From the NCBI GenBank assembly GCA_008632985.1, contig QPGO01000072.1:1-64000 (forward strand): 64,000 nucleotides of DNA, written 5' to 3'. The stretch comes from Psammoneis japonica (lineage: Eukaryota). Under the pieces are notes generated by a model that saw nothing but the letters and a program-made list of their open reading frames with translations, did not search any database and was not told the origin of the DNA. Positions 1,457 to 48,000 of the stretch are shown piece by piece (position 1 is the first letter of the stretch; each line of letters begins with the position of its first letter). The translations under genes were made by a program, and so were the position numbers.

Positions 1457-1945
1457 TTATTAGTGATCCATTGCTTGTTTTCCTTTTCTTCAAACTTGTT
1501 CCAGCATAGCTGTTGTTGTTCGTCAATGCTCAGTGCGACATGTCTACAATGCATTGTCGACATCAACTGTGAGGGCTGATGCCGCCAAAGCCTGAGCTGG
1601 GGCCACCATGCCTCTGCAACATAAAATCAAATAAACAGAGCCCGAACCAGGGCTACCTGGGTTGTGAGAGATGCACGCCGGGCAAAGCAGGAGACTGAAC
1701 GCCAGTCTCGTCGCCGTGGCAACCGGTCCCCACTGTTCAACCAGCACTGATGGGAAACCATCCCCACACCATTTTGTCTGAAGTGAGCACATGCCAAGGC
1801 ACACTGCTCCACACTGCCATGTTCAGCACCTGCCATGCATGCTGAAAACAAGATGAATCACAAGCGTCAAGATGAATCACAAGCGCCACACCATTTCAGC
1901 TGTGGCAATTCTCATTGTGAGTTCTCTTTTGTGTGATGTTGTGCA

Positions 1946-1969
1946 ACACACACACACACACACACACAC
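1946..1969. repeat. (CA)n microsatellite
   Basis: acacacac... run seen directly. Confidence 0.9.
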
Positions 1970-2940
1970 GCAAAACCCAGCACTCTTTCTGCAGCTGACC
2001 CCTGAGCATTCTTTGCAACAACGAGTGGTGGCCATGCATGTTGTTTGTGTCAACACCACAGCACCCTTGCCCTTGTGTCTCAAACCCGGTGTGTTGCAAG
2101 AGCATCTGTGTGTCACCACTCTGGTGGAGATTGCACATCATCGCCTGCTTGCTGACCAACACACATCTGCTCAACCATGCCACCAGAGTGTGCTTGGCCA
2201 GAGCAGGAAAAGCAGCTCTTGCTTTTCACTCAATTGCACTTTTGTTGCTCCCAGACCTCTTGCAAGAGCTGAGATGAGCTTGGCATCATGTGAAGTTGCA
2301 TGCAGGACTCACCCAATCTCATGTGCATGCTCCATCCACACAAACACACCCAGCGCCAGCACAAGAGTTGGAATGCGGAGCTTCAGACTGTGGTGGTCAA
2401 ACATTTTTGACAGCATCAACACTTCTGACCAGTCTTGACAATTGTTTGAAAGAGATTTGTGTCACTTTTTTCAAGGCAAACTGCATGTGTCAATGACACA
2501 AAATGGACCTTGCAATGGCACTGCTGCTTGCACCGCTTTTTTGCTTGTTGTTGCTGGGATCATCTGTTGGTGCCTCTCCTTCTTCATGTCACATTCTTGC
2601 CACTCTTTTTCTTTGACACATTCATTTTCTTTTGCGCTTGCAGAGCAAATGATTTGACCCTGTGTGCACAGCCTTGAGAGGCAACATCAGCTGACAAATT
2701 TGCAATGGGGCGCACTTGCCCCACCCCTCAGTCATGGCAGCCAGAAGCATTTCTTCTTTCCTCAACAATTGGAGCGGGTCTGTTGCATGTCATGTTGGCT
2801 GTGATGGCAAACCCCCACAACCAAAGCAAAAATTTAAAACATCAAGCCACAAGTCTGTGACACAGAGGTGGTCCATCTGCCAACTCTCATCTGTTTTGTG
2901 TTTGTTGTGCATCAAAGGTTGCACGTGCACCAAATGTTTG

Positions 2941-3216
2941 TGACAGAAATTGAAGGCAAATGGCAAGAATTCAAACAATGACTCCTCACTGCTGTCTAAA
3001 TGGCAGATGAGTCTCCGCTCAGAGACCGTCACAGGAGCCGAAAGACGTGTGAGTCGGTGCAATCGGGCTGCTGTTGTTATTCTTGTGAGCCTTGTGGCTC
3101 GAAAGCAAACTGCATCGCGCGCGAACGTGCGGAACTAAAGCACACAAAACTGTGCGCGGTAAACTAAACAGTGCACGACATTTCGCGTGCACCCAAATCC
3201 TGTTCAAATCCTGTCA
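2941..3216 (-). repeat. 3' LTR of the Copia element
   Basis: 276-bp direct repeat of 8057-8333 with TG...CA termini. Confidence 0.97.
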
Positions 3217-6200
3217 CTCCCCAGTTTGCTTGAGGAGTCACAGAAACAGATTCGACTTCGGATGGAATGAAGTTCCAGAACATGAGGGGGCGGAGAAGGT
3301 CCCCAGATTTGGGAGCAACCCCAATGCTTGCTGAGAATGTCAGCAGGGTTGCGGGAGCCTTCGATGAAGTGGAACTCTGGGCAACCAGACGCAATTGCCT
3401 CACGCACACGGTGGAACGACAGTGCGGTGTGTCGCTTGTGTAACTTGGAGTGCGGGATGGTGGCACTGTCTACAACCGACTTGTTGTCACCGAACATGCA
3501 ACTGACATTGTGGATCGGGACGCCAAGGCAGCGCAGGGTGATGCGCAGGTCAACAATCTGCTCGACACAAGTCCTTGCGGCAACAAATTCAGACCCGCAG
3601 GTCGCAGTCTCCACAGTGGCTTGCTTCTTAGAGAACCAATCAGCCGGGAATTTGTTGAGGAAGTGGAGCATTCCCATGACAGAGCATCCGGTGAGCATGC
3701 AATGGCACAAGTTTGCATCGACGTAGTGGGTGGCAGTGACGAACTTGCCAAGGGGTGGTGGAGCGTCCTTTGGGATCATCTCTTCTGCTTCGCTGTACAC
3801 GGAATGCATCCATTCACAGGCCGGAGCAGGGAGATCCAAACAGCCGGGCTCTTCCGTACGAACGCGGAGAGCGCCGTGTCACATCTTGGAGAGGCAACCA
3901 CAGACGCGTTTGGCACGGTCCAAGTGACCTTGACGGGGCGCAGCTCGGAAGCTAGAGAGTGACATGACGGCCGTGGTGATGTCAATTCGACCAAGGGACA
4001 CTGCCCACTGGAGTGAACCAACAAGAGACTGGAACTTGTGAATGCCATCGGGCCCCAGCAGTTTGGAAGTGTCCAGTTCGGGGTGGTCACCCTTCTCCAG
4101 AGGTGACAGGGCGTTGGTGGCAGGTTTCTCCCCAAACAGTCGGGTGCAGCTGTCAACCATGCGCTCGATGCACTTGCGCGGAGACAGGCACAAGGTTCCG
4201 TCGGGATCCCGGGAAAAGTCACAACCCAGATGGAACTCAATGGGTCCCGCACCCTTGAGCTTGAACTTGCACTTTTCCGTGAGAGCATCGACGAAAGATT
4301 GAGGGTCCTTCATGGCAATGGCGAGGTCATCCACACAAACGGCAATGTGTTCACAGTGGTCGCCGTTCCTGCGCATCCAAATGTCGGGTTCAGCGCGGCA
4401 GGGGAAGAATCCTTCAGCTCGCAGGCAGTCGGCGAAGCGCTCGTGCCAGCGGAGACCAGAGCTGCGCAGTCCATGCAGGGCCTTGTGGATGACAAGGATG
4501 TGTCCTTCGAGTTTGCCAAATTCGGGTCCGGCTGCAATGTAGAGCTTCTCCTTGGTGGTGGCTTCAAGGCAGGCATTGCCAATGTCGGTGGCCCATGTCT
4601 CTAACTCGTTGAGTTCGGCCAGGAAAATCATCAGCCGAAGGCCACGGAGGGAGACTGCTCCGGAGTGGACACTGTCGATGGGTGCGTCCGTGAGGTGCCC
4701 ATCGGCTACGAGTCGTGCCTTGTGGCGACCGTCGTGTTTCACGTCGTGCACCAGGTGCACTCGGATCTTCTTGTGTCCCGCAGGAGGAGTGGAAGACTCG
4801 AAGGGCCCGCAGTCATGGAAGACTTCGCACTCCTCGAGTTGGTCCATCTCGAGGTTAGTTGCGTCTCCCCATTTGCGGTTGCCGTTGCGTTCGTCTGGTG
4901 ACATGGCGTGTTTGCAGTTCCGGGGAACTTTGCATCCGCACTTGCAGCGAGGTGCAGTGCAGAAGGAGTGAAGCTTGGCTTGGTTGGCCATGCGAAACAG
5001 CTTCTTTTGGCGCCTCGCGATGGTGCGGAACCGCTTCCAGCCATCAGTGTCTAGGAGTCCGTTCTCTCGTGCACAGATGGCACAGGTGACGGGGTCATCC
5101 TTGGCGATGATGGCAAGAGGCTCGGACGTGATCTCCCCACTTTCCCATTCAAGCATGATGTTGTAGCTTGAGCCTTTCCAGGTTGGGTCATGAGGCTTCA
5201 GAGGTCCTTCGTGTGACACGATGCGTCGAAATTTCCAAACAGCAGTGTCTTCGTCTTCTTGCTCAATGTGATTCATGATGTCGTTGCAGGCAAGGACTTC
5301 CTCGTGTTCGTCGTTGTTGACAGAGCAGACGAACTTGGTGAGCTCGGGATTGCCGTTCACTTTCCATTCGTGGTCTTCGATGGCCTTGACGATGCGAGCT
5401 CTGTGGCGTTGTCCGTCCTCTTGTGGCTGCATGAGGAATGTGCGTCCAATGATGTCTTGCGGATCAAAAACTGGCATCTTGGGTGTCCTGATCTCCCCAT
5501 CAGGAGAATCGACGGGGTTGTCGTCATGGCGGGATTTGATGATGGGTTCAGGTGGCTCCCCATCAGGAGGATCAAGACGCAGGTTTTGAACGGCAGGATC
5601 GGTGGCAGCGGAGCGTACGTTGGACCGGCAGAGGATCTTCTGAGTCTCGTCAGAGAGAATCTTGAAGGTCATCTGGTGGCCGACGTGCTCAGCAATGCCA
5701 ACAAAGCGTCCGCACAACTCACGGGATTCGGACGGCCAATCGGAGTCATCGAGGTGGAAGCACACGGGTTCCCACCAGTGAAAGCGAAGCAATGGGCTGA
5801 TGTCCGGGGTGGAGCCAGTGAGAGTTTCGAGGGGCATGCGCCAGTGGAGACGTGGGGATGCTGCATGGTTGAGTGTGAAGCACACATGCATGAGCACCAG
5901 CAGCCATGTGTGGGCAGGCGAACCAAAACGATCCATGACAGTGTTCACCATGCGCTTCACGAATGTCGCTGTCAATGTCATAGAACACATCGTCGGACGG
6001 TTCCTCGGAGCAGACGTCGTGTGCGCACATGGCGCGTCGGGGAGCTCGAGGTGTCGTCTTGGGTTGAAACGCACTGTCGTTTTGAGCTGCCGCGGAGAGG
6101 AGCAAGCCACAGTGTTGATCGCATGTGAGGCTCTTGCCACTCTGCGCACGATGCTGATGAGCTTGGTTCTTGACAGCACGGAGTTCCTCGACAGGGTGCA

Positions 6201-7149
6201 CGGCATTCTCGAGCATGACGCGCTTCTGTCCTTCAGAGAAGTGGTCACTGGCCGGGATGAGTGCCTCGCACTTGCGCAACTGATCTTGCCAATGAAGGAT
6301 GAACCCGTGGGTCGGACCTTTCCAAGTGCCATCACCAAGACGTGCGGTGGTGAGGTGCGTGAGCAAGGTGGAGGACTCGATGGATGCGCGGGCAGAGGCG
6401 AGCGCACACTCAGACAAGGCGTGGCAGACGGTCTGGGAGTCAGAAGACCCCACATTTTCGCGAATGAGAGCCTTGCCCTTGTCGGTGAGAAGAATGCGTT
6501 CGAAGACGGCGAACATGCACTTTTGCTGTTCAGCAAAGAGCAGTTTGTCTTCGGGGCTGGTCGGTTTGTACGACGAGTCTAGAATGCACTTGATGTCTTG
6601 GGCACGGGCTTGTGCCACAAGTGAGGTGTGCCAAGTGTGCCACTGCTTGTCGGATTTGAGAGCCGTGAAAGCGGTGGGGTCACGCTTGATGCCTCGCTTG
6701 AAGTCTCGCACCGGGTTGCATGCCTTGGTCCGGTTGGTGACATGCGGAGGTGCGAGGGGTGAGCTGCTGACGGACACAGAAGACATGCAGTCGGGGCTGA
6801 GGCGGCAGGCAAGGAACTCGTCATGTGTGAACAACGAGGAGTCATTGGCAACGTCAAGACCTTTGTGTGCTTTGACAATGTGCAGACCAATTGGAGCTGC
6901 CAACATGTTCTTGTGACCGCGGGGCAAAGGGATCACATTGGTGCCGTTGTCGCACTCAAGCGAGTCGATTTGGGATGGCATGAACGTGAACAGTTCTTGA
7001 CACGAGTCCGTGCCGTCTTGGGTCAAAGCCAAACGAAGAGGGCTCCCAGCACCTTGGGCAAGCACGGTTCCAACAACGTGCTCGAAACCATCGGTTTGTT
7101 GCTGACGAGTGAGAACCATGGTGGACAAAAGTGGTGTCAGGACAAGCAA
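3204..7149 (-). pseudogene. Copia gag-pol remnant (gag ~7149-5962; integrase tail and RT ~5961-3882; RNase H ~3878-3300)
   Basis: Motifs VRDFKRGIKRD (gag); DVKHDGRHKARLVADGH, TDIGNA[C]L and AV[C]VDD (RT); YVDANL, GSEFVAAR, GDNKSVV and NPADILSKHW (RNase H). In-frame TGA at 3879-3881, probably from CGA. Protease and integrase core are missing. Confidence 0.93.
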
Positions 7150-8041
7150 TTCTTGTTGGGAAGCAAAGGTAGACTTGAAACTTGGGTGAGAACAGACTTG
7201 ACTTGAAATGGACTTGACTTGAAATCTTGAACTGCCTTGAAATCAGAAGTCGCCGGGCTGTGCCATCCCGTTCGTTGTCAAGTGCTAAACTTCCCATCCG
7301 GTCCGTAGAGTTGTGCCGGCACATCCGAACCTGCAGCCAGCGGCGCTTTGGGTTGCTTGTGAGCAGAGTGGTGGGTTGTAAACCCCTGCAGGTGAGCTGA
7401 CCAGAGGTGGACAAGACCCCCGAACCGTTCTTGTTTTACATCGGTTGGATTTCCCAATCAGGCTGGCCAGTTGACGCAGGCGTTGGGCGCTGTGGACGAA
7501 CGAACAAACTCGGGAAAACACCCTCGCCCCAACGCAGGCTGCAGTCATGGCTGCTTGCTCTCACAGTCGTCCTCGTGGACCCAGCAGAACTGCAGAGCAC
7601 CAGCAGTCCGGGGTGGATCAGGTGCAATGGACTCGGCGTGCTTGTAGAGTGGCAGCAAAGCCGCAGTCCAAAGGGTGGGTTCAATTCCTTGGCCGTGAAG
7701 ACATGCACATGCACATGTCTTCAGCGACGGAGATCCTTGAACATGTGGGGTTCTTGACCGTTAACCGTTGGGTGGGTGTGTCAAGGGATGAGGATCAAGG
7801 ACAGACTTGGGTGTGACCGTTGAATGCATGTCTTCAGCGATCAAAGGCAGCACAATCAATCCAGATGTCCAGCGGCAAGGAAACTTGACGGTGGCGTTAA
7901 CTTCCTGCCGATGCCCTGGCATTGAATGCGCGCAGACTTGCCGATGCACGCAGAACATGTGCGGAGGTCCACGCAGAATTGAGATGGCGTCGTCGGTGAA
8001 TCAACGACGACGATGGCGGTTGCTCAATGGGTTGACAATGA

Positions 8042-8056
8042 GCAAGACTGTTAATC
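8042..8056 (-). other. Putative primer-binding site complementary to a tRNA-Asn(GUU) anticodon arm
   Basis: Plus strand gcaagactGTTaatc abuts the 5' LTR and has the layout of an anticodon stem-loop (CAAGA-CT-GTT-AA-TC). Confidence 0.55.
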
Positions 8057-8333
8057 TGACAGAAAATTGAAGGCAAATGGCAAGAATTCAAACAACAACT
8101 CCTCACTGCTGTCTAAATGGCAGATGAGTCTCCGCTCAGAGACCGTTGCAGGAGCCGAAAGACGTGCAAGTCGGCACAATCGGGCTGCTGTCATTGTTCT
8201 TGTGAGCCTTGTGGCTCGAAAGCAAACTGCATCGCACGCGAACGCGCAGAACTGAAGCACACAAAACTGTGCGCGGCAAACTAAACAGCGCGCGACATTT
8301 CGCGCGCACCTAAATCCTGTTCAAATCCTGTCA
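8057..8333 (-). repeat. 5' LTR of the Copia element
   Basis: 277-bp direct repeat of 2941-3216. Confidence 0.97.
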
Positions 8334-9723
8334 GTTTGTGGGCGGACCACTCTGCGTTTTGGAGAAATGTTGAAACAAAATTGACACTGCAAAAAATCTC
8401 ATTTAAATGCCTCTGTAATTCCAGGACAAACAAGGAGATGACCCCCCTAAAAACTCAAAATTTCTCATGCCTCTTGTGTCCACGATTTAGCCGAGCCAGC
8501 TGCAGCGCTTGCTCTTGGTTTTCACGCTGGCATCAGAGTGCTTTTCATCATTTTGGTGCCATTGCTTCATCAAATTGGCTGCACCCAATGCACAGAGCAG
8601 ACTAAAAGAGATGTTGCAAGCAGCGAAAGACATTTGCACCAGCTTGCGATGTCGTGCCGGTGTTTGCATTTTTTCCACAGCAGGCATCATGGAGCACACG
8701 GAGCAAACCTCGGCGAGGAGTGTTTGATGCATGTGGGGCTGAGCACTTCAGCCCCTCATGCAAAGAAACAGAGAGATGACAGCAGCATGAGGAATGTCTT
8801 CAGCCAGCTGCTGGCTGAAGAATCCTGCACACTGCAAGGGTGCCGGTAGATAGAATCGAATCACCTCATGTCATGTTCAATGTCCGTCCGTCAATCAGTG
8901 CTGAAAGAGTCTGTCAATCAGTGCGTTTGGGAGGTTTTGGCCGCAAGCTGAAAGTGCCGTACACTAGAGTGACAGATTGCGCTGTTTGCTATTTGCTGTT
9001 GCGTTCGCCACGTCACGCGCGCGTCACGCCGATGACGTCAAAGGCAAACTGCGTGACGTAGGATAGTCAATTGCTTTCATAGATCCGGGTTACAGGCATC
9101 GCTGATCTAATCGAAATCGCGCAGCGCGCACATCTAGTGTTTATTGTTTTTCGTATTATTTCCGCGAGCATTGTATTGCTAATGAATAAAAATAATATTA
9201 TTTCCTATTTGACAGTAAATACAGTGTTTATTATTTTCATAAATAAAATCCGCGAGGCATGAAGACACGCCGGACATTTTCTTACGTATGTTGCTGACAT
9301 CAGCTTTGCTGTGTTAATTAAGCATTCGACGCCCAACGAGGCCATGTCAGGCAGTTCTGACGCACGCCTACCCAGAAAGACCTCTGTGACGTCATTGTGC
9401 TCAATGTTCGAATAAAAGTTACCCAAATGAAGTTGTCACCTTTCTTCGCCGACATTGTCTAAGCAACAAGTGATCGTCCGGCATGATAAATAATAAACAC
9501 TAGATCGGCGACCCCTGTATCAATTGCGTTCATCCCCGATTTGGCCCGATTTAGCAAACTGCTCCTCCCCGTAGAAGTGTGCGTATTTTTTGCACCAGTT
9601 TGCTGTTTGCTTCGCTGCACTTTGAGATTCCTTCGAGGTGCGCCATCGTCTCTCGTCTGAAAAACACCACACTCGCCTCTCGCCTGCCTGCAGCACAAGG
9701 ACATCAAAGTGCTTCTATCAACC

Positions 9724-10931
9724 ATGAGTGACGGCATGCGTTCGAATGCCAGTGCACCAGCTGCACAGCGTCATTTGGTCGATGGCGGTGTGCTGGCATC
9801 AATCGGGAATCAACCCGCCGCCCCCGCTCGGCCGAATGCCGCTGCTGCTCCTCGCAAAGCACAGCGATTCCCAAACACGGACAAGCTTGTCTCAGACGGC
9901 AGACATGAGGAGGTGAGTTTTCTGGCGTTGCTCTTCTCTGCTTTGCACATCATTTTTTCGGTTTCTTGCCACTTTGATCTCATCTTTTTTTCCCCCAACT
10001 TGTCTGCAGTTGCTTTCCGACATGCTTGCGATTGTCGAACAGTGCGATGCTTGCAGCGCTGTTGCACCCGATGCCAAGGATCCGCAGAATCCTTGGCACA
10101 AAGTGGGCCGTCTGTTGCATGCAGATGGCAATGGCATTGCAACGAAGCATGGGTTGCAGGCATCAAAAACTGCGAATCGCGTTGCTTTGACGAAACGCAA
10201 GTTCGTGATGGAGAAAGGCATTCTGCCGCGCCTCGCAAAGAAGCATGAGGACGAGTTTTCTCAGAAGAACTTCGGGGATGCAGACAACGAAAAAAGGGGA
10301 CATGTGCTTTGGGAGAAATGCCGAGACAGTGAAAAGAAATCCCAAGAAGGCAAGGATGAAGAACATGCCAGGAAAGTCCAACAAGAGCACACGGACGAAG
10401 CGAACGAGGAGCGTTGGAACCTCAACCCCCCCGGTGCTGTGAACTCGACTGGTTTGCAGTTCAGTGACCAAGTCATGCGCAACATCAATTTCACCGGCTC
10501 GGCTGCTTCTAAGTCGCCTGTTGTCAGAGATCCAGAGAGCGGCCCATTCGCTGCCACCAGCAACAAGAAGCACAAGAGTGACCCTGCTCCACCTTCTGTG
10601 GCCCGAGCATCTGCGCCTGGATCAGAAACGTCTCCATTGGATGTTGATGGGGAGCAAACAAAAAGCTTCAAAGATCAGGTGCAAGAAGAACCACGGGGCA
10701 TTGACGAATGTGCATGACAACTCTGCCTGCATCAACGACTCGTTTGAGAGGACTGTGGAACTCCTTGCCTCCCAGAACAATGCCATGGAGGAGTCTGTGA
10801 AACACAAGCGCAGCGCCACAATGCTTTCCTCCCTTCGCGAGGCTCGCAAAGATGCTCTGGACCGTGGAGATGATGTTGACTGTGAGAGGCATGACCGGGA
10901 AAATCAAGGAACTGGAGAACACATGGTGTGA
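9724..10931 (+). pseudogene. Harbinger accessory (putative DNA-binding) protein, degenerate
   Basis: ATG at 9724; intron 9913-10009 (GTGAGT...TGCAG) joins in frame to ORF 9974..10717; frame break near 10715. Convergent with the transposase inside the TIRs. Function is inferred from position only. Confidence 0.6.
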
Positions 10932-11153
10932 CATGGGCGGCAACTAGGTGGAGCATGATTCGGGGGCAGCAATGAGACTCCAGAGTGGCAGCCACAAAGC
11001 ACTGTGCAGGTGCACATCTACAAACCTGCCTGCAGTGCATGTGTGCACAGGTGTCAATTCCAGACAGTGTGGTCAGGCTCGATGCATTCACACGACACAT
11101 CATGTCAGATCTGTCATGTCAAAACTAAAGTGGAATCTATTTTGTTCTAAAAA

Positions 11154-12752
11154 TCACAAAATTTGTCCAGCTGGCAAGCAGTCTTCTAGCTCTGGGGCAT
11201 GCAAGCCAAGTCCATTTCCTGTTTGGGATCCATTCACGCACGTGTGGACATTGTGGAGAAGAAGACCTGCACGCAGCTGCGCAAGGACAAAATCGTGGTC
11301 TTGTTCGAGCTTGAATTGTTCCTTGCGATTCACCAAGGCGCAGATGTTGACCTCACCCGCGCATCCCCACTCCACAGATTGACGGCATTGCTTCATCACC
11401 CCATTTTCTTGAACTTGACAAAGAGGAAGAACAGGAACTAATCTCGTGGGCTCGTGTCCAGTGCAAATGCAGTGCCAGACACCTTTGAAGGCTGAGTCTC
11501 CGTAAAAAGCACACACCTTTCCTTGAAGTTCCGGGCACGCCTCTTGAACAACACAAAGGAAAGTGTCAATTTCACTCCTTGTGAGCGCTCCACTGTCGTG
11601 ACTGGAGAAACACGGAATGGCAAGAACATTTTAGACATGTGATGCGACGCAGCAGAACAATGTTGGAACTCGGATGCACTCACGGTTTGGATGACATGGG
11701 CCCACAAGCGTGCGCATGAACTCCATTTGGAAGGAACAAATTGAACATCTTGAGAGCATGCTTTTTAGACTTCCCAGTGTGCACACAACGTTGAGCCTCA
11801 TCATGTCCCGGGCGATGCATGCTTCCCTCGTAGTCTCCATCAGGGCCCGTTCGTGGTGTTGCAACTGCACAGTCTTTGCAATCGGCAGAGCCGCATGCCA
11901 CAAAAGAGCCGGGTGCAAAGTGAACTCCAGGACAAAAATGTTCCTCTTCCGTCTCGGGGTCAATCAACGTGACATCTCTTCCAACTTCCTGACAAATCGC
12001 CTCCACAAAATCTGGAAAGTGTGGCATCCACAGTCGCAGACCGTGTGGTCCAAGCAGACATCCATGTCTCGAATCAAAATGCCGCACGAAATGCTTGAAA
12101 CCATGTGACCATTTCATCGCTTCCCCAGAGATGCCATTGTTGGCTAACTCTTTGTGTGTCTCCCCTCGCTTGTGCTTGATTGGTGAACAGATCAGCAAGT
12201 TCTCGCGATGAAAATGCAAGTGGCCTTGGTTCCCAGGACGGGGCACACGAACAATGACTGGAAGATCCAGCAGATCCAACATTTCTTGGAGCTCAACCTT
12301 GGAAAACGTGGTAAAATCATTTGCCTCACTGTCATCTTGGAAGCTGTCAATTCTTGTGAATCGACAGATTTCCTTGTACGGAGTGGTTTCGAGTTCATGG
12401 TCTTGCAGGTCTCCGACCTCTGCATCAACCTGCACCGCGTTGTGGAAATGCAGCATGCACGTTCGACATGAGCCTGTGCACAATTGCAGGCAAACGTCTG
12501 CTTGAGCAATTTGGGGAGACATTTCCATGTCATTTTTGGATAAGGAGCTGCGACCTTTGTGCAACCAACATGATCGTGGAGTTTAGATGCTCTTGCGCGT
12601 TCTCCAGAGCACACATGGCCGCCGACATTGCTTCTCGACAAAGAAGTTGATCGTCGACATTAACTCCAAATGTCTTTCTCCTTTTCTGTGTTGTCCATCG
12701 TGTGGGCTTGCGACGTCTCTTACCCGTAAAGGGATTGATAAGCATCGCCATT
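11154..12752 (-). pseudogene. Harbinger-type DDE transposase (DDE_Tnp_4-like), hypermutated
   Basis: Motifs ADCK, AQRCVHTGKSKKHALK..FLPNG...CGP, FYGDSAF, RQSVEWG and LLHNVHTCVNGSQ. Intron 11602-11683 joins ORFs 11680..12564 and 11154..11516 in frame. N-terminal frame break near 12540. Confidence 0.85.
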
Positions 12753-25904: not shown

Positions 25905-27239
25905 ATGATGCCTTCTAAATTTGCAGTCGCAGCGCTGATCCTCGCCGCTTCAACGGATGCGTTTGCGCCCTTTACTGTCAACAAGCAAGCCAAAACATCC
26001 GACGTGACTCATATTGGAGATTTGAAAGTTCCGAGTGTTGGTATTGGAACTATATCATGGTCGAGCGACAGCAGTACGTTCGTTAACTTAGGTCGTTTTC
26101 TCCCGCATTTTTGACGACTCGCATATCTCAATCGCACCTGTTTGCTTTCTTTCTTTGAATCAGTTACAAAATTAGAAAATATGGAGCTTCAATCGCTGGT
26201 GGATACGGCGTATGAGTCCGATGCTGCCTTTTTCGATACAGCTGAACGATATGGAGGCAATCTCAAGACGGCACTCGGACTTGGGTGGGGAGAAACGGAA
26301 ATGCTCACCAACAAGTTGTTGGCTCGATCCAAAGCAATGGACACCTCTTCAAACAACAAAAACAGACTAGCCCCAGTCATTGCCACCAAGTTTACTCCTA
26401 GTCCCTGGAGAACGACGGCTCAGTCAGTAGTGGATGCATGCGAAGACTCTTGCAAGCGATTGGGCGTTGACAAGATTGATTTGTATCAGCTACACATGCC
26501 GGATATCGTGCAGCCACTGAAATTTATGGGATTCGGAGAATCAAAGGATGAAGTCTACTGGGAAGGACTGGCCGAGTGCTACAACCGTGGTCTCGTTTCA
26601 AACGTTGGCGTCTGCAACTACGGACCTACACTAATGGCGAAGTGTCAAGAAGCTCTCGACAAGCGTGGCGTTCCGCTGGCGTCGAATCAGATTGGATACA
26701 GTCTCATTGGAAGACACAATGGCGCGCAAGAAACTCTCGACAAGTGTAATGAGTTGGGAGTCAAGGTACTGGCTTTCTTTCCATTTGCCATGGGTCTCTT
26801 GACGGGAAAATACACTAGCGACTCGATTGAAACCATTGCCGAGGACACCATCACATCACTCACTTCCAGTAAGAAAACCAAACTCGAAGAACGCGACTTG
26901 CACCGCTACCTCAAGGGTGACGGTGTTACCATCCCCAAGGGTGGAATCAGGCCACTTTTAAAAGTCATGGAAACTATTGCGCAGAGACGGGAAAAGACCG
27001 TGTCTCAAGTGGCGCTCAACTACATTGTATGCAAGGGAGCAATCCCCATTCCGGGAGCAAGAACGGCTGCCCAACTTCGTGACAACATGGGAGCCATGGG
27101 ATGGCGTCTTGATGAAACTGAAATTGCAATGTTGGAAGCAGAAGCGGATAAACTCGGGTTTGGATTTGATGGCGCTGGATTCAAGAGAACGAGCGAAAAG
27201 TTCGTTGGATACGGTGTTGAACGGTGGACGCTGGATTGA
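25905..27239 (+). CDS. Aldo-keto reductase (pyridoxal reductase-like), plastid-targeted; intron ~26074-26163
   Basis: TDAFAP presequence; GIGTISW, FFDTAERYG, IATKF, IDLYQLHMP, VGVCNYG and IPIPGAR. Confidence 0.9.
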
Positions 27240-35389: not shown

Positions 35390-35730
35390 TGTTGATTTCC
35401 TTTCACGTGACTACTTTTTTCTTTCTGAATTATGAGGTGATATTTTGAAACATGATTGTTATCGCGCAAACAAGGTTCGGGGTTCGGGTTCGGATGGAAC
35501 TCAACATCGATTTGAGTTCCGGGTCCGTTGCTTGTGACGATTCAACATGAACAGGAGCTGCTTGTCATTGACTTCTCTACTTTCTACTTGAAAGGATCAA
35601 AAGCTTGGCCATATCACCGACTGCAGTACATACCTTTCTCTTAGAAGAGAGCCGTTCTTCGTTCTCTTCTCCCATCTCGTTCATGGTGCAAGTTGCAAAG
35701 TGGCGGGTGGCGGGTGGCAATCGGCAAAAT

Positions 35731-38700
35731 TTTTGGAACAGAAAGAGCACGCGCGCCTGGACGAGAGCAAGAAAGTGATAACGGTTGATGGCGAATCCAG
35801 TCCGGAATCCGCGACCAAGGAAGCTGAAGAGACAGATCAGGGAGGAAACGGCACTAAAGATGATGAGTCACGAACGGAGCCACAGTTGGGAACGAGAAGG
35901 AGAACGAGAATGAGAACATTCTTGACATTGGGCTTTGGTGAGGGAAAGAGTGAAAGAGTTGTGCGAGGAGATCAGCTCCTCGTTGTCTGAGACAGACCCA
36001 GCCATTGACTGAGCACTCGTCAGAGTGCACTGGATCTTTTCAAAGGGGTCTTGTGATTTCACAAATCCAAGCCCTGGAAGCAGAGGCAGTTGTTCCAACA
36101 CATGGTTGTTTCAGAAATGCCACAACCATGGGAGAGAAAACAGTGGTGGTTGGGCAGACCCACCCAACAACCCACCTGCAAGGATGGCACCAAAGCCGGG
36201 TGACGGGTGAAATGGTCAGCAGCTGGACCAAGCCATTCAAGAACAAGAGTGGATTCAAGAAAGGGCCACAAAAGAACCAGACTGCGTTTAAAGGATGTGT
36301 GAAGGAACTGTGTGACTTTGCACATGACAAGACAGGCAGCACACAGCACAGCAACAAGATCCTGAGGCCGCTGCAAAAATGACACAAGAAGATTGTGTGC
36401 GCCACATGGGCCAGCTTTTTGACCCAGGCAACTGTGTGAAAGTGACAACAGAGCAGCTGGAAGAGCTGACCTCAGCAGCAAAAGGACGCTCCACCAACCA
36501 AAGACTCAAGTGGAAATGTGTTAATCAAACACCAGCCAGGCCTGGGGGCAGAAGAAGAGATCAACGACCACATGAGCTGGGTGCTGTGGTTGCTTGAAGC
36601 ACTGCAGAAAACAAGTCAAATGCTCCACACAGGATGTCAAGCAGGTGCAATTTGCCAGAACAATCCTGAAAACAGCTTGCAGGTCAAGCAAAAGGCAATT
36701 CATGGTGCAATCTGCAACAAAGATGGGCCAGCAGCAAGAACTGCCTGATCATGGTGCAGGATGTGGCAGTGGCCAAGGATGTCTTCAGTCAAGACATGGG
36801 ATCCATCAAGGGCAAGACAGTGAACAAACAGTCTCCCTGAGTCAAGGCATTGACAGCTGACATGCCTGCCCCAGTTGCAGTGCAATGTTGTTGATCCATC
36901 ATGCTCTCCTGTCCTCCAACATGATGAAGATCAATGGGCTGCCAACTGCTGCTGAGACATTGGCATTGTGCCATTTGGCACAATCAAGTGCACATTCAAC
37001 CAGAAGATCAAAACACTGCTTCAAAGCACCAGTCAAACACAGAAGGCCTGCAAGACACATGGATTTGTTGCAACTGCACAGTGCATGTTAACAGCCAACT
37101 TGAGCAGATGCCCGAACAGCTGAGATGGGACACAACCTCAATGCCATTTCACTGGAAGAGCCTGCGGCAGAAATTGAGAGACATGCTTGTCCTGTCAAGA
37201 ACTGCATGTGCTTGCAATGCCCCATGCTGCAATTTTGAAACTTTCCATGCTGGCTGACCACCGAGGTGGCAAACTGGGCCATGTTTTGGCCAAACTGCTT
37301 CACGGCCAAAGAGGTGGCATCTCTGAGTGGTGACATCCACACACCCTTGCAACCAGCCTCCAAATTGTGCACAACAAACATTGCCCTCTTGAGTTTGGAG
37401 AACATGCAGCACAGACCCACAAAGCACACGACAATGCCACAGTGAGCCACACCATCAGTGCCACCGCCCTGCATGGCCAACTGGAAATGCCCAGGGGGAC
37501 ACTTCTCATGAGCCTTGAGACAGGGTGCTGCATCAACCACAATCACAATGCATGGACTGTGCTCCCAATGCCCAACACCATGATTAACCAGGTGCGTGGC
37601 ATTTTGCAAAATGTGACAAGGCCTCCAAAGGCATTGGTTTGTCCATGGTTGGAGCAGGAATCCTGTTGCCAACAAAATTTCTGAAAGCTCTCAAAAAGAT
37701 GAAATGGCTGACATTGATGACAGGAATGACAGCAGCTGTGAGCCTGACAACAGCTCCCTGTTTGAGTTTGTGGGTCAGACATTGATGATGCCACCCCACC
37801 ACTGAACAACTTCAACACAATGCCAAGACCCTGGATGAACCAGCACAACAAATGCATCACAAAATGGTCTTCATGCAGGGGCAAATGCTGGACCGAACAA
37901 AGATCCTCAAACTGCAGGAGTGGACAGGGAACCACTGGAAACCAAGGAGAGGACCAAGACACTGCCAAAGCTGCCAAAGCTGCAGAAGTGGAGCAGGAGC
38001 CAACCAACAATCATGGTCAAAGAACAATGGACAATGCCAGGGACCAAGCAACAGCTGATGCCAGTGCCAATGCTGAGCCAGACAACCAAGCAAGATCTCA
38101 AACCAAAAAGGAACATGCACAAGAAATGCAGTGAATTGACTGGAGTGTGTGACCTGCACCAACAAAAGCCCAGGTCACATGACCACCTGCACCTTGCCAT
38201 GCTCAATGATGTTGACTGCACCCAATGCCCCATGAAAAAAGGGCACAAAAAAAAACTGGCACAAAGGGTGAACAGGCAGTGATGGAAGAAGTGGAGGAAC
38301 AGCTTTTGAAGTGATGGAGATCCTCAAGCCAATCAGCATCAACATGCCAACTGGGCACAACAACAAAAGAAGAAAGCACTGCAATGCTCATGTTCCTCAA
38401 ACAAAAACAATGTGACCATGTCTCAAGGGATGTGGTGCAATGATGGTTGACCTCAGAAGATCCGCGCAGCAAAAGAGGACATGTCATTGCCTGCTGCATG
38501 CATGGAATCCATTCTGCTGTCATGTGTCATCATCACAAAGAAAGGACAAGCAAGATGTTGCAAGCACAAACCTTTCTCATTTCTCAATGCAAACAGATGA
38601 GAAATGTGCAAAGTGCATGGCACATGAGACAAGTGGCAAAACAATGCCACATGTCAAACTGCTGAAGGTGCTCTGTGGAATGGCTGTGGTGCACTGCTGG

Positions 38701-40122
38701 TGTGTGGAAGGAGGAGCTGGCGGGGATCTCAAAAGTTGGGGAGTCAAAGTGAGCCCATGCAACATGTGCATGGCAAACAAGACCATCAATGGAGAGTGAG
38801 CAACACACCATCTTTTGGCACATGGGCCCATGGATGACTTGAAAACATTGCATGTGAAATGCAAGGTGGTTGCTTGATCAAATCATCAAGAAGTGACCAG
38901 AGAAGGTGCGCGCAAAACATTTTGGGTCAATGATTGCTTGGGGGACCTTCACAAGCACCTTGGGATGACTGTCAACTGCAGCTTTAAAGGGAAGGTCAAG
39001 CAGAGCATGTTTCACCAGCACATTGACAAGCTTGCTGACTTGCTGCCAAAGGACATGGACAGGAAAAGCCCAGCTCCAGTGGCAGCCAAGCTGCCTCCTG
39101 TTTGACACAAATGAGAAGGATCTGGGATGTCAAACACAAGAGGAACAAAAAATCTTCCATTCTGTGGTGACAAAGTCACTTTTCTTGTTGCTTCAAATGA
39201 CAAGGCTGGACATGCAGATGGTGGCATCCTTCCTGTGTGCCCAGGCTCAGGACACTGGGGCTGATGACAAAACATCATGATCTGCGATTGACCAAGGGCC
39301 TGCCACTCACACTGATTGCAGATGAGCTGGACATGACAACCAAGCATGTGCTGGTGGATTGGCACTTTTTGCACAGCCCACCCCAGCATGCAACACATTT
39401 AGCTTGACCAAGAGTGAGCTTGTTGTGTTGGGGTCCATGATGGCGCACGTCAAGAACTCTGCCATCATGGAGAGAAGGAATTTTGTGGAGGGTCAGGTGT
39501 TCAAAAGCTGGGAGAACAAGCTCTGCCAGCAGGACAATCAGTGCCATTCTGTTGGAGAAGAATGATCAGATGCTCAGCAGCACAAAAGGATCAAACACAT
39601 CAGAGTGCAGCATTTTTTCTTGACCGACCACATCAGATGCTCAGCAGCACAAAAGGATCAAACACATCAGAGTCGTGCAGCATTTTTCTTGACTGACCAT
39701 GCTCTGAAGGGTGGCGACCTGACCGCTGGACATTGTCCAACCGAGATTGGCTTGCAGGCTACTTCACAAAGGCACTTCAAGGACTCCTGTTCATCAAGTT
39801 TTAAAACCAAATCATGAATGTGGCGGGAAACACCCCAATTGATGACCTCAGCCATTGCAGGAGAGTGTGTTGGAGCAGAAGAGTGTGCACCTGGAGAGCA
39901 AGAAAGTGATGGGTCCACAACTGAGGAAGCTGAAGAGACAGATCAGGGAGGAAATGACAATGAAGATGACATGATGAATGGAACTGCAACTGGAAATGAG
40001 AAGAAGGAGATGAAAGTGAGAATGTTCTTGCATGTTGGCAAGGGGAAAGAGTTGAGTGACATTGGCTCATTCCAAGATGATTGTTGGTTCTAACAGCCAT
40101 CAGAACCCGCTGGATCTTTTCA
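35731..40122 (+). mobile_element. Old, heavily degenerate Ty1/Copia (CoDi-like) LTR retrotransposon
   Basis: Diverged LTRs ~35731-36042 and 39868-40122, both ending TGGATCTTTTCA. PPT-like GCAGGAGAG before the 3' LTR. Remnants of integrase (AEIERH; KHCPLEFGEH...WTVLPMP), RT (VKLLKVLCG, PCNMCMANKTING, MDDLK, KHLGMT) and RNase H (KHIRVQHFFLTD, HCPTE). No TSD found. Confidence 0.88.
39564..39700 (+). repeat. ~67-bp tandem duplication inside the RNase H remnant
   Basis: atcagatgctcagcagcacaaaaggatcaaacacatcagagt...gcagcatttttt occurs twice in succession. Confidence 0.85.
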
Positions 40123-43637: not shown

Positions 43638-45042
43638 GAAGCTAGAATACCCCCCAAGTGTTGCGCGGAATATTGTGGAACATTTTTTTCGTGTTGTAGA
43701 CCATGCTGCATAATAGTAGGCCTCTGTAGTAAAGAATGCAACTGGGTGTTAATCTATAAAACTAAGAAGAGGACAGGTTACAGGAAGAATAATCTAGATC
43801 TGTTTTCTCTGTTTGTTGTGGCTGTTGGAGTTGCATAGATATCCTTAGGTGTAACTTTGCATATTGCTATTCATGCGTTTTCAACTACAGCTTTCTGCCC
43901 CGAGTGCTAGCTGCTGACGGTAGGCGTCATTAATCATCACTGATACCCAGTCCTCGCCGGCAGCACCCCCCAGAGCGCGGGATCACAACGAGTCTTCCGG
44001 TGGCGTATAAAACGTGAACGGTGTGGTTCTATCTTGGACTAAGAAACAGCAAGTCTCCAGAGAACAATGTGGCTGCATGAATTCAGTCGCATCATAGGAC
44101 TATCTGTTGACACCAATGGCTTTGTGCGTTGGTCGTAGGTTGGAGTAAGCATGCAAGAAAAAGGAATCTGCTTTCATGATTCATGATTGCGTTGACTCGT
44201 CTTGCCTCGTGGTTTGAGTTTCATCCCCACCAGCCTTCCTAGAGTGGTGTCCTGGGTCCCACATGGTCATTTGGGCGGAGAGGAACCATTTCGAGTCGTA
44301 TTTTGTTCAGTATAAGGCTGGTCCTTATCCCTTATCCAGGACCCAAAAACGAAACTCGATCATGCTTTCTCCGACCCTCGCACTTTGATCAGTTCTCCAT
44401 GACTCAAACTGATTCTTCAATCATGTGGTTGGCTTTCCGTTGGAGGTGCGGGACCGATCAACATTATGTGTTTCCAACTCCACGGTTGTGTGCAAGCCAA
44501 TATGGTATTTACCGGTAAGTCGTGAGGGGGTTCCAACTCCCTTTCTTTTGCTCAAAAGTCAAAAATGCTGATCGATCTCAGCCAATTTGCGGAATTAATT
44601 CCGCCCAAAATTTCAAAATTATATGTGTCACAGTATGACCAGATACTTTTTTAAATGATCATTGCAAAATTATTCGTTTCATAATACACAATGAATATCT
44701 AAGGGCTCATATAAATCTCTATACACCCGACTAAAAATCTTTTGAAATCTTATCAACGTTAATCCTAAACGGTGAAAACATGCGTTGGGTTAACTCGTAC
44801 TTGGCTGACCTGCTCTTAATATTTTTATTAAAGGGTTGAGGTCTGAAAATGATAGGCGCCACCAAGAAACGAACATCTATAGGAGTCGCACAATTACTTA
44901 ACGATCCATGATTCAATTCAAACGACCAAAAAACCAACCAGGTTTGCCCGGAGATGATGGATGCGCTCATTTTCTTTGCACACACAACGCGACAAAAGAG
45001 GTGCAGAGCATCACATACATCATCAAAAGCCCCATCACCACC

Positions 45043-48000
45043 ATGACAGCATGGAAGCTTGCATTGTCCGTCGGCCTTGGCCTGACAATGCTTCTTACAG
45101 TCCATAAGGGACTTGTCCGTATGGAGGCAAACAGTCTCACATCCATGGGAAACGCGACAGTCACTTCGACTTCTTCGCTTCGCAGCAGTCCTGCTTTTTC
45201 GAAACGAAAAGCGACGACTGACGAAGAATCTCAAGTACAACCGCAAGTTCTACGAAACGCTCTCGAGGTTGAATCACCCACGATTGCTCCCTCCAGACTA
45301 GTTCCCGACTGTGATACGCCGAGACCTAAAGTAATCTCATACTTCTTCCCTACCTCGTATCCCACGGTTGGCGATGCGGAAGATGATACAGAGCAACCGA
45401 CCTCATTACCGACAGTGGCCACAAACAGTCCTACGCTTGCTCCTACACCGGCTCCGTCGATGACGCCAGCCACCGATAGCCCTACACCGGCTCCTACCCC
45501 GAGTCCGACTCCAGCGCCAACTCCATCACCAACACCAGCTCCTACCCCGAGTCCAACGCCAGAACCAACGCCGTCACTTACATCTGCTCCGACTCCAGCG
45601 CTGACACCATCACCGACGCCTACTCCTACCCCGAGTCCGACTCAAGCGCCTACACCTGCGCCAACACCGTCACCGAGTCCGTCTCCGACCACTAGTCCAA
45701 CAACAGTACAGACGCCTGTTCCAACACCTGCTCCGACTCCAGCACTGACACCATCACCAACGCCTAATCCTACCCCTAGCCCGACTCCAGCGCCTACAAT
45801 GGCACCAACACCGTCACCGACACCAGGACCGACGCCGTCACTTACATCTGCTCCGACTCCAGCGCTGACACCATCACCGACGCCTACTCCTACCCCGAGT
45901 CCGACTCAAGCGCCTACACCTGCGCCAACACCGTCACCTACTCCAGCACCGAGTCCGTCTCCGACCCCGAGCCCAACACCTGCGACAACTCCGAGTCCAA
46001 CACCTTTACCTACAATGATCCCGACGACTCCCCCCTCAAACGCAGCAGACCCAGCTCCACCGAAATTGACCGACACTCCTTCTGTCTCCTCCTCTGGATC
46101 GCCCGCTCCTAGTGATTGTGGCACTCCTACAGAAATGACAGGCTCGCCAACTACTGCTCCTACTCTTGCAGCAGATTTGGCACCAAAAGTCACCGACGCG
46201 CCTACGAGTAGCCCGACAATGGCGGCATCGACCGTTGAACCTACTCGATCACCAACTGCTATGCCAGTTTCCAATAGTCCAACATCAAATCCCACTGATG
46301 TACCGGACCAGACAGAGTCTCCCACAAGTGAGGCAACTCCGTCGCCATCGGTTTCCGAAAGCTCTCTTCCGTCGGCAGCGCCCTCGTTTCATCCTGATCC
46401 CGATCCAATTGATACCCCCGCTCCATCCGTCGCCCCTGGAACGGCAGCTCCGAGCGATTGTGGTACTATGACGGGCTCGCCAACTACTGCTCCTACCCTT
46501 GCAGCAGATTTAGCCCCGCCAACCGACACTGTGGCGCCCACAAATGAGCCATCTTCATCTCCATCAGTTTCCGAATCTTCTCTTCCATCGGCAGCGCCCT
46601 CATTTCACCCTGATCCGATCGATACGCCCGCTCCTTCAGTCTCAGTAGGAACGCCGGCTCCCAGTGGGGATTGTGGCACTCCTACAGCAATGACAGGCTC
46701 GCCAACTACTGCTCCTACCCTTGCAGCAGATTTGGCCCCGCCCCAAGACACTGACGCACCCACAAATGAGCCATCTTCATCTCCATCAGTTTCCAAAACT
46801 TCTTTTCCATCGGCAGCGCCCTCGCTTCACTCTGGTCCCGATCCGATTGATACGCCCGCTCCATCCGTTGCCCCCGGAACAGCATCTCCGAGCGATTGTG
46901 GTACTATGACGGGCTCGCCAACTACTGCTCCTACCCTTGCAGCAGATTTAGCCCCGCCAACCGACACTGTAGCGCCCACAAATGAGCCATCTTTATCTCC
47001 ATCAGTTTCCAAATCTTCTCTTCCATCGGCAGCGCCCTCGATTCACCATAATCCCGATCCGATTGATACGCCGGCTCCTTCAGTCTCAGCAGGTACGCCT
47101 GCTCCTAGTGGAGATTGTGGCACTCCTACAGCAATGACAGGCTCGCCAACTACTGCTCCTACCCTTGCAGCAGATTTGGCCCCGCCCCAAGAAACGGAAA
47201 GGCCCACAAATGAGCCATCTTTATCTCCATCAGTTTCCGAAACGTCTCTTCCATCGGCAGCGCCCTCTGTTCACCCTGGTCCCGATCCGATTGATACGCC
47301 CGCTCCTTCAGTCTCAGCAGGAACACCGGCTCCTAGTGGAGATTGTGGCACTCCTACAGCAATGACTGGTTCTCCAACCACTGCTCCTACACTTGCAGCA
47401 GATTTAGCCCCGCCCAAAGACACTGAAGCGCCCACAAATGAGCCATCTTCATCGCCATCAGCTTCCGAATCTTCTCTTCCATCGGCAGCGCCCTCTCTTC
47501 ACTCTGGTCCCGATCCAATTGATACGCCGGCTCCTAGTGGAGATTGTGGCACTCCTACAGCAATGACTGGTTCTCCAACCACTGCTCCTACACTTGCAGC
47601 AGATTTAGCCCCGCCCAAAGACACTGAAGCACCCACAAATGAGCCATCTTCATCGCCATCAGCTTCCGAATCTTCTCTTCCATCGGCAGCGCCCTCTCTT
47701 CACTCTGGTCCCGATCCAATTGATACGCCGGCTCCTAGTGGGGATTGTGGCTCTCCTACAGCAATGACAGGCTCGCCAACTACTGCTCCTACCCTTGCAG
47801 CAGATTTATCCCCGCCCAAAGACACGGAAGCGCCCACAAATGAGCCATCTTCATCGCCATCAGCTTCCGAATCTTCTCTTCCATCGGCAGCGCCCTCGCT
47901 TCACTCTGGTCCTGATCCAATTGATACGCCGGCTCCTAGTGGGGATTGTGGCACTCCTACAGCAATGACAGGCTCGCCAACTACTGCTCCTACCCTTGCA

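Follow-up and report, generated by a model that had tools for sequence, protein, structure and literature searches.

In a 64,000-nucleotide stretch of the genome of the diatom Psammoneis japonica (assembly GCA_008632985.1, contig QPGO01000072.1, positions 1-64,000, forward strand; hereafter the window), a complete Ty1/Copia-type long terminal repeat (LTR) retrotransposon has lost most of its TpA dinucleotides. We hold with high confidence that this reflects a real, TpA-specific hypermutation that acted after integration. The best explanation overall, which we consider probable, is that adenine deamination in DNA converted TA to TG or CA while sparing host genes. A prior sequence-only reading of the window had described TpA as nearly absent from the Copia element and common in the genes around it, and dinucleotide observed/expected ratios (o/e) bear this out. 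Across positions 2941-8333 there are 34 TA, an o/e of 0.13, where the control ratio would give about 150; the flanking stretches 13000-35000 and 40500-64000, which served as controls throughout, have TA o/e values of 0.57 and 0.58, respectively. The remaining ratios in the element are 0.85 for CG, 1.39 for TG, 1.49 for CA, 1.17 for AA and 0.85 for AT. The element and its parts are as follows.

2936..2940, no strand assigned: left copy of the target-site duplication GTTTG (flank comparison).
2941..8333, minus strand: complete Ty1/Copia-type LTR retrotransposon, TpA-hypermutated (RVT_2 match, LTR pair, TG..CA termini).
2941..3216, minus strand: 3' LTR (LTR pair comparison).
3204..3878, minus strand: C-terminal part of pol, in a different frame (by-eye alignment with the last ~220 residues of homologues; tblastn coverage).
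3879..6578, minus strand: pol open reading frame (ORF; integrase and reverse transcriptase), 899 amino acids from stop to stop, 2 Tyr, no internal stop (RVT_2).
4326..4337, minus strand: catalytic YVDD reading CVDD, with the Cys codon TGT at 4335-4337 (translation).
5746..7242, minus strand: upstream ORF of 498 amino acids, putatively gag-like from its position (ORF translation).
8057..8333, minus strand: 5' LTR (LTR pair comparison).
8334..8338, no strand assigned: right copy of the target-site duplication GTTTG (flank comparison).

The element had been placed at 2941-8333, and the LTR ends and the 5-bp duplication agree with those coordinates exactly. Its termini are TGACAG...CTGTCA, GTTTG is duplicated perfectly on both sides, and all of the features of Ty1/Copia membership are present: an RVT_2 reverse transcriptase, an LTR pair ending in TG..CA and a 5-bp target duplication. 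The pol ORF matches RVT_2 in Pfam with E = 6e-23. Pfam scans returned no match for the 3204-3878 part, which we take to be RNase H, and no family for the 498-amino-acid upstream ORF. The G+C (GC) content of the element is 55.6%, compared with a median of 48% across 80 Copia loci related to it and taken from metagenome contigs. Stop codons in the element are skewed as well: over all three frames, 124 of the 150 plus-strand stops and 89 of the 109 minus-strand stops are TGA, compared with 444 of 834 in control DNA. The region 2000-9500 holds 27 ORFs of at least 100 amino acids; with TAA and TAG lost, chance ORFs run longer on either strand, and these could pass for genes.

The consequence for the encoded protein is the loss of tyrosine. 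The sequence-only reading had reported an 885-amino-acid pol ORF with only 2 Tyr; the Tyr count stands, while the length is 899 residues from stop to stop. Tyr thus accounts for 0.22% of pol, compared with a median of 4.12% in 120 homologues, and Cys for 4.1%, compared with 1.2%. For the column analysis, pol was aligned with 114 of the 120 homologues (excluded were four partly duplicated ones at 48-49% identity and two Tyr-poor ones), and a column was called conserved when at least 70% of the 114 carry Tyr. At the 24 such columns, the window copy has 1 Tyr, 14 Cys, 6 His, 2 Phe and 1 Trp. Other residue classes are mostly conserved, at 72-100%, the lower values being those of Gln (4 of 8) and Thr (11 of 19). 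Measured against one intact homologue (P0003) over the whole of pol, 39 Tyr positions have become 4 Tyr, 22 Cys, 7 His and 6 other residues, and in the 3204-3878 part Cys replaces Tyr of the homologue sequences or consensus at ATCGSEF, LRCLGVP, SCMFGDN and HWGC.

Cys and His had been noted from the letters at positions that are usually Tyr, and every motif quoted for this is present in the translation: AVCVDD, GNACLEA, KALHGL, SVHSG, PRCKCGCKVPRNC, CAICARE and RVCGCL. The homologue consensus carries Tyr at each, reading YVDD, GNAYLEA, KALYGL, SVYSG, PKYKYGFEVPRNY, CAIYAKE and RIYGYL. It follows that TA is the ancestral state, as had been proposed, given the 14 Cys and 6 His among the 24 conserved Tyr columns and a median TA o/e of 0.71 (minimum 0.33) in the 80 related loci. 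Nor is the family poor in TA by nature, as the relatives carry Tyr and have normal TA. A>G and T>C changes are unable to make stop codons, so the frames stay open while TAY codons for Tyr become codons for Cys or His.

The two LTRs of a retrotransposon are identical at integration, and their present differences date the change. Over a 270-nucleotide ungapped register, 20 positions differ between the LTRs, every one of them by a transition and every one in a column that has a pyrimidine-purine (Y-R) step in both LTRs, whereas the 130 positions outside Y-R steps show no change. There are 15 variable Y-R columns, of which 5 are doubles with TG in one LTR and CA in the other, 4 have TA versus TG or CA, and 6 have CG versus TG or CA; the unchanged columns comprise 2 of TA/TA and 16 of CG/CG. 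By maximum likelihood, each LTR has lost 0.73 of its TA and 0.16 of its CG. CpG decay predicts 0.28 TG/CA doubles, compared with the 5 observed, which identifies TA as the ancestor of the doubles. Each double is the trace of independent hits on one ancestral palindromic step, and together with the appearance of both Cys and His at Tyr positions the five doubles confirm that both strands were hit, as had been claimed. Because the LTRs now differ at TA-derived sites, the change occurred in DNA and after integration. The intact target duplication argues against the element being a recombinant of two elements.

In events per site, TA loss in the LTRs amounts to 1.33 and CG loss to 0.17, a rate about 8 times faster for TA; relative to positions outside Y-R steps, TA loss exceeds roughly 50-fold per base (95% Poisson bound, our own arithmetic). 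Deamination of 5-methylcytosine (5mC) at CpG resembles the process studied here in turning a palindromic Y-R step into TG or CA, and it is seen in the same tracts of the window (CG o/e 0.19-0.85). It differs in being unable to remove TA and in its slower pace. The earlier statement that 5mC decay cannot account for the missing TA therefore holds, with the addition that ordinary decay of CpG to TpG or CpA runs alongside at a lower rate, as seen in 6 of the 15 variable Y-R columns.

The loss of TA extends beyond the Copia element to three further tracts of the window, T1 to T3, T1 being the sequence that the Copia insertion splits.

1655..2940, no strand assigned: T1 left, the sequence into which Copia inserted (TA o/e 0.02, CG o/e 0.26; no Pfam match).
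8339..8959, no strand assigned: T1 right (TA o/e 0.17, CG o/e 0.52).
9585..12583, minus strand: T2, degraded PIF/Harbinger-type DNA transposon (TA o/e 0.09, CG o/e 0.72).
11683..12582, minus strand: T2 transposase ORF, 300 amino acids, related to DDE_Tnp_4 proteins (exhaustive HMMER search).
35643..40090, no strand assigned: T3, with degenerate terminal direct repeats about 4.1 kb apart (TA o/e 0.04, CG 0.19, TG 2.05, CA 1.68).

An exhaustive HMMER search with the T2 ORF recovered 212 relatives, the best at E = 4.6e-48. Of 12 relatives scanned, 11 match PF13359 (DDE_Tnp_4) at E <= 0.001, with 7 at or above the curated cut-off of 24.8 bits. A word-indexed homologue search with the same ORF found nothing, and a Pfam scan of 88 ORFs from T1, T2 and T3 gave chance-level matches only (E >= 0.012, all below curated cut-offs). 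At 8 conserved Tyr columns the T2 transposase has no Tyr at all, reading 3 Cys, 3 His, 1 Leu and 1 Phe. As a DNA transposon has no RNA stage, the same loss in T2 shows that the process acts on DNA. T3 is probably an old LTR-type element; the tally made on the Copia LTRs was dropped for its terminal repeats, which carry indels and non-Y-R changes and are too decayed.

These two lines of evidence, from the LTRs and from T2, bear on the proposal that the Copia family is natively TA-poor, or that an ADAR-like activity acted on its RNA ahead of reverse transcription. A>G change with a 5' U matches the neighbour preference of ADAR, which a 2026 preprint also cites (bioRxiv 10.64898/2026.01.13.699255). 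However, the hallmarks of pre-integration editing of the ADAR or APOBEC type are absent, as LTRs that arise from one template and are identical at integration nevertheless differ at TA-derived sites, and a DNA transposon is affected in the same way. All 80 related loci have a TA o/e of at least 0.33, Tyr is carried by all relatives, and TAG is found among the surviving TA sites of the tracts, although ADAR prefers UAG. We therefore regard a native composition or RNA editing as extremely improbable.

The borders of the affected DNA are sharp. TA density switches within 100 bp at 1654, 8960, 9584/9716, 12584, 35642 and 40091, and the flanks encode ordinary host proteins, including an alternative oxidase (AOX), PI-PLC, a TPT transporter and an amino-acid transporter. 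The genes of the window are long ORFs without interruption. The sequence-only reading had taken the hypermutation to be confined to transposable elements, and it is borne out by the sharp borders, by the Copia and Harbinger-type elements and by normal host-gene flanks, with two of the tracts lacking a recognisable protein.

The composition of the tracts is consistent with transitions within a single class of dinucleotides. In all tracts TA o/e is 0.02-0.17, TG and CA are raised to 1.4-2.05, and AA and AT are normal. The sum of TA, CG, TG and CA is 0.24-0.26 of dinucleotides in every tract and control, and such a constant total is what interconversion by transitions inside the Y-R class would give. 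With TA nearly gone in all four tracts while CG spans 0.19-0.85, TA loss saturates first. In T1 left and T3 (1655-2940 and 35643-40090), with TA o/e at 0.02-0.04, CG at 0.19-0.26 and TG/CA as high as 1.7-2.05, both palindromic Y-R steps are nearly gone. Two further observations concern these tracts. T1 holds a short (CA)n-type microsatellite, translated as HTHTHTHT (1999-2274, around 1990-2010), and T3 has at 39565-39673 a perfect 42-nucleotide tandem-like duplicate with a spacing of 67 nucleotides, which, being perfect within heavily decayed DNA, is younger than most of the decay.

The neighbours of the TA step also matter. YTAR accounts for 39 of the tracts' 70 surviving TAs and RTAY for 5, whereas the control shares of these contexts are 19% and 30%. 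Survival relative to control share is lowest for RTAY (0.03), followed by YTAY (0.05), RTAR (0.12) and YTAR (0.35). This pattern is roughly additive if A is hit about 3 times faster before a pyrimidine, which points to a single-strand preference for 5'-TAY-3'. Two further tallies run in the direction of this model: Tyr codons that follow a pyrimidine have become 9 Cys and 1 His, and those that follow a purine 5 Cys and 5 His; and the ratio of RCAR plus YTGY over RTGR plus YCAY is 1.31 in the tracts, compared with 1.12 in the controls (p = 0.009). Strand-processive editing in one pass was considered and rejected, as TG and CA outcomes are interspersed: a runs test on TG/CA labels found no clustering of outcomes in the four tracts (z from -1.05 to +1.88). 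Along pol, the order of Cys and His gives 8 runs, compared with about 9.4 expected (our own count). Many separate hits on both strands are thus more likely than one processive pass.

That AA is left alone had been part of the original claim of a TpA-specific context, and indeed AA o/e is 1.08-1.24 in the tracts, compared with 1.12-1.15 in the controls. This bears directly on error-prone repair synthesis in heterochromatin by a polymerase of the Pol-eta type, which has hotspots at WA (W being A or T). The A>G errors of Pol eta fall at WA and with greatest frequency at TA, and elements carrying 5mC could draw repeated repair. Such a polymerase would, however, be expected to leave A>T and A>C changes and hits at AA, while AA is untouched in the tracts and the 20 LTR differences are without exception transitions, none of them outside Y-R steps. 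Pol-eta-like repair is the worst fit of the three enzymatic routes put forward in the sequence-only reading, and we consider it quite improbable.

To what extent the bases themselves can be trusted was addressed with Logan contigs of one sequencing run (X1), for which k-mer depth is available and single-copy depth is about 61. Contigs at that depth match the unique flanks without any difference. Over TA-poor DNA, they show no other letters and no gap at 2378-2903, and no other letters and one gap each at 10200-10702 and 10674-11129. A miscalled modified base at TpA, that is, a sequencing or assembly artefact, could be entertained given that the stretch is present in runs of one sample only, with the library type not on record. 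Yet contigs at a depth of about 61 agree letter for letter with the single-copy stretches poor in TA, apart from one gap at most, and a loss graded by context, with TG in one LTR and CA in the other, is unlike a systematic miscall. Partial versions of the conversion moreover occur in unrelated records, and mutations of the same type were called from Illumina reads in another alga (bioRxiv 10.64898/2026.01.13.699255). We hold an artefact to be very improbable.

The same contigs provide a view of copy number and of allelic state. T1 has a contig depth of 58-85, about single copy, and T2 one of 108-137, about two copies at a likeness of at least 80%. Summed contig depth over the Copia element reaches 66,000-128,000, compared with 61 for single copy, and although depth is not equal to copy number, the Copia family is very abundant. 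X1 contigs that are exact to 2378-2903 and 10200-11129 have a depth of about 31-35, about half of the single-copy value of ~61, and several contigs, at a depth of about 66, link 2909-2942 straight to 8352-8377 without the Copia element. The Copia insertion or its surroundings may differ between two haplotypes or paralogous copies.

Copies of the Copia family vary at 932 places, 749 of them transitions. Among the 40 of 940 variant rows listed, 12 form six adjacent TG/CA pairs, 6 more have TA elsewhere and TG or CA in the window copy, and 9 have CG elsewhere and TG or CA in the window copy. Site 4336 is instructive, as other copies read T there for 83% of their summed contig depth, restoring the codon TAT and with it the Tyr of the catalytic YVDD. 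Such TA at sites that are mutated in the window copy is a hint of intermittent activity.

Partly converted relatives are also found. Homologue P0111 has 13 Tyr, 5 Cys and 7 His in 31 columns and P0089 has 12 Tyr, 7 Cys and 5 His in 27, whereas the lowest-ranked 11 of the other 114 homologues, among those listed, have no Cys and at most 2 His at Tyr columns. At 7 of the 80 metagenome loci, Cys and His together occupy at least 25% of the P0003 Tyr positions; L076, for example, reads 7 Tyr, 8 Cys and 10 His of 32. Across the metagenome loci TA o/e falls as the share of Cys and His rises (Spearman rho = -0.47, p = 1e-5). Seven loci (L052, L063, L065, L069, L076, L077 and L079) have TA o/e values of about 0.27-0.54, taken over the whole locus or the matched region, with Cys or His at 31-64% of Tyr positions (10-18 of 22-32 sites). 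They form a useful set of intermediates for the order and context of hits.

A number of points weigh against the explanation we favour. By our estimate, the loss of TA explains about half of the GC excess of the Copia copy over its relatives. The Cys:His split by context is not significant when taken alone (Fisher p ~0.14, our own arithmetic). T1 and T3 are without a protein recognisable as that of a transposon in Pfam, so that targeting of transposable elements is demonstrated for 2 of the 4 tracts. All of the runs X1-X4 belong to a single sample and study for which the library type is not on record, and they are possibly the assembly's own reads, so that the base check is not independent. 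Other copies keep TA at 83-100% of depth at 4171, 4336 and 7998, indicating that the process is not uniform across the Copia family. The chemistry rests on analogy, and the preference for TAY fits bacterial TadA (UACG) better than eukaryotic ADAT2/3.

Of the hypermutation by adenine deamination that we favour, the following sequence of events can be proposed. After integration, elements were hit in DNA, 5'-TA-3' becoming TG or CA by A>G on either strand, in a process that runs near saturation, halts at element borders and spares host genes; this much the sequence shows. Enzymatic deamination would turn adenine to hypoxanthine in 5'-TA, about 3 times faster in TAY than in TAR, through many separate events on both strands, and the following round of replication would read hypoxanthine as G. 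The candidate enzyme would be a deaminase of the TadA/ADAT type, or another that acts on nucleic acid, recruited to silenced or foreign chromatin. Tyr codons, including that of the catalytic YVDD, would be destroyed and the enzymes of the element killed, and the dead elements would keep long open frames. TadA/ADAT and ADAR offer a likeness in that they convert A to inosine, read as G, with a U 5' of the target (U33-A34 in tRNA); they differ in that their substrates are RNA, whereas the change here was fixed in DNA after integration. Bacterial TadA recodes UAC codons for Tyr to Cys in mRNAs, and laboratory adenine base editors were evolved from TadA. Going by these analogies, we see the chances that adenine deamination is the chemistry of TpA loss as evenly balanced.

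The main rival is a mutagenic modified base at TpA in silenced elements, either 5-hydroxymethyluracil (5hmU), made from thymine through oxidation by a TET/JBP-type enzyme, or N6-methyladenine (6mA), placed by a TA-specific methyltransferase, that would mispair at replication and yield T>C or A>G. It predicts the same two-strand signature, confinement to marked chromatin and sharp borders; the tracts carry at least one DNA mark, as their CpG decay makes plain; and 5hmU in dinoflagellates sits preferentially at TpA and TpC. Weighing on the other side, 5hmU and 6mA are weakly mutagenic, compared with a loss of at least about 50 times background. Sequence alone does not separate a modified base from deamination, and we judge the modified base unlikely. 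As regards targeting, we infer that the deamination or its equivalent is directed by silent chromatin or small RNAs and not by duplication, and that the hypermutation has a role in defence.

The sequence-only reading knew of no description of such a process in diatoms. This stands, as a full-text literature search, with most subscription journals outside its coverage, found no report of TpA hypermutation in diatoms; the phenomenon itself, however, has been described in the chlorarachniophyte Bigelowiella natans. In mutation-accumulation lines of this alga, an integrated giant virus and virophage mutate at ~6e-7 per site per generation, ~1000 times background; of the 231 mutations recorded for the viral regions, 230 are A>G or T>C, and each of these 230 falls at TpA (bioRxiv 10.64898/2026.01.13.699255). 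The hypermutation is active in some lines only, its target is single copy, and coding sequences depleted in TpA show an enrichment of DDE endonuclease and reverse transcriptase domains; Illumina reads served to call the mutations, and Mettrop et al. propose an ADAT2-like DNA adenine deaminase (bioRxiv 10.64898/2026.01.13.699255). As far as it is described there, the process in the B. natans lines is of the same kind as that in P. japonica. Both involve A>G or T>C at TpA to give TpG or CpA, on both strands of non-host DNA with a normal genome adjoining, and both leave clusters poor in TpA and rich in CpA and TpG, the DDE and reverse-transcriptase classes being the two found here. The single-copy target in B. 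natans, together with the roughly single-copy T1, would argue against targeting by duplication.

There are also differences between the two cases. The host is a chlorarachniophyte (Rhizaria) there and a diatom (stramenopile) here, and a single-copy viral insert contrasts with a high-copy Copia element and a Harbinger-type transposon. The viral region in B. natans has a rho of 0.45, compared with near saturation here (TA o/e 0.02-0.17), and a rate was measured there whereas P. japonica presents a historical scar with CpG decay alongside. The preprint makes no mention of diatoms, trinucleotide context or an LTR comparison, the words 'trinucleotide', 'context' and 'diatom' being absent from it (bioRxiv 10.64898/2026.01.13.699255); the preference for TAY over TAR and the LTR test come from the present work.

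Repeat-induced point mutation (RIP) of ascomycete fungi is a further point of comparison. Like the process described here, RIP is a near-saturating transition hypermutation of DNA, confined to elements and dependent on dinucleotide context, by which elements are inactivated and the homology between them is blurred. In RIP, however, C>T at CpA yields TpA, lowers GC and creates stops, whereas the process described here removes TpA, raises GC and is unable to make stops. The hallmark of RIP, a gain of TpA with lowered GC, is accordingly absent from the Copia element, which has lost TA and has a GC content of 55.6%, compared with the median of 48% in relatives.

The gene content of the window is that of a diatom: for an aldo-keto reductase ORF (26115-27239), the best matches that carry a name belong to Attheya, Striatella, Extubocellulus, Cylindrotheca and Pseudo-nitzschia, the identities listed being 67-75%. 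The window does not derive from B. natans, whose genome is rich in introns, whereas the genes here are unbroken ORFs. At 44902-48510 lies a 1202-amino-acid open frame with a GC content of 55-57%, a normal TA o/e of 0.57-0.81 and no Pfam family; two DUF7467 ORFs follow it.

The occurrence of TpA loss in a diatom, in a chlorarachniophyte and, as partly converted Copia, in environmental relatives suggests a process that is old or widespread in the supergroup of stramenopiles, alveolates and Rhizaria (SAR). We put forward tentatively, as a possibility that falls short of an even chance, that these distant SAR algae share a dedicated TpA-specific DNA adenine-editing defence, in which a natural 5'-TAY deaminase would be guided to silenced foreign DNA at any copy number. 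If true, SAR-wide TpA editing would be a marine-algal counterpart of fungal RIP, leaving 'ghost' ORFs that mislead annotation. The finding in P. japonica would carry mutational defence from one preprint on one alga to diatoms, which are major marine primary producers, and would add ordinary transposons to viral inserts as targets of TpA hypermutation. Next to adenine base editors, a naturally occurring enzyme or DNA mark by which A in TA steps of DNA becomes G would have direct interest.

In the genomes concerned, Tyr in converted elements gives way to Cys and His, GC goes up, frames remain open, and homology searches fail to pick the elements up. The Harbinger transposase was missed by both Pfam and a word-based search, so transposon content is under-called and ghost ORFs can be mistaken for genes. 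The Y-R-depleted composition of T1 left and T3 marks old elements recognisably without homology. Insertion dates drawn from LTR divergence would be badly overestimated in these elements unless Y-R steps are masked.

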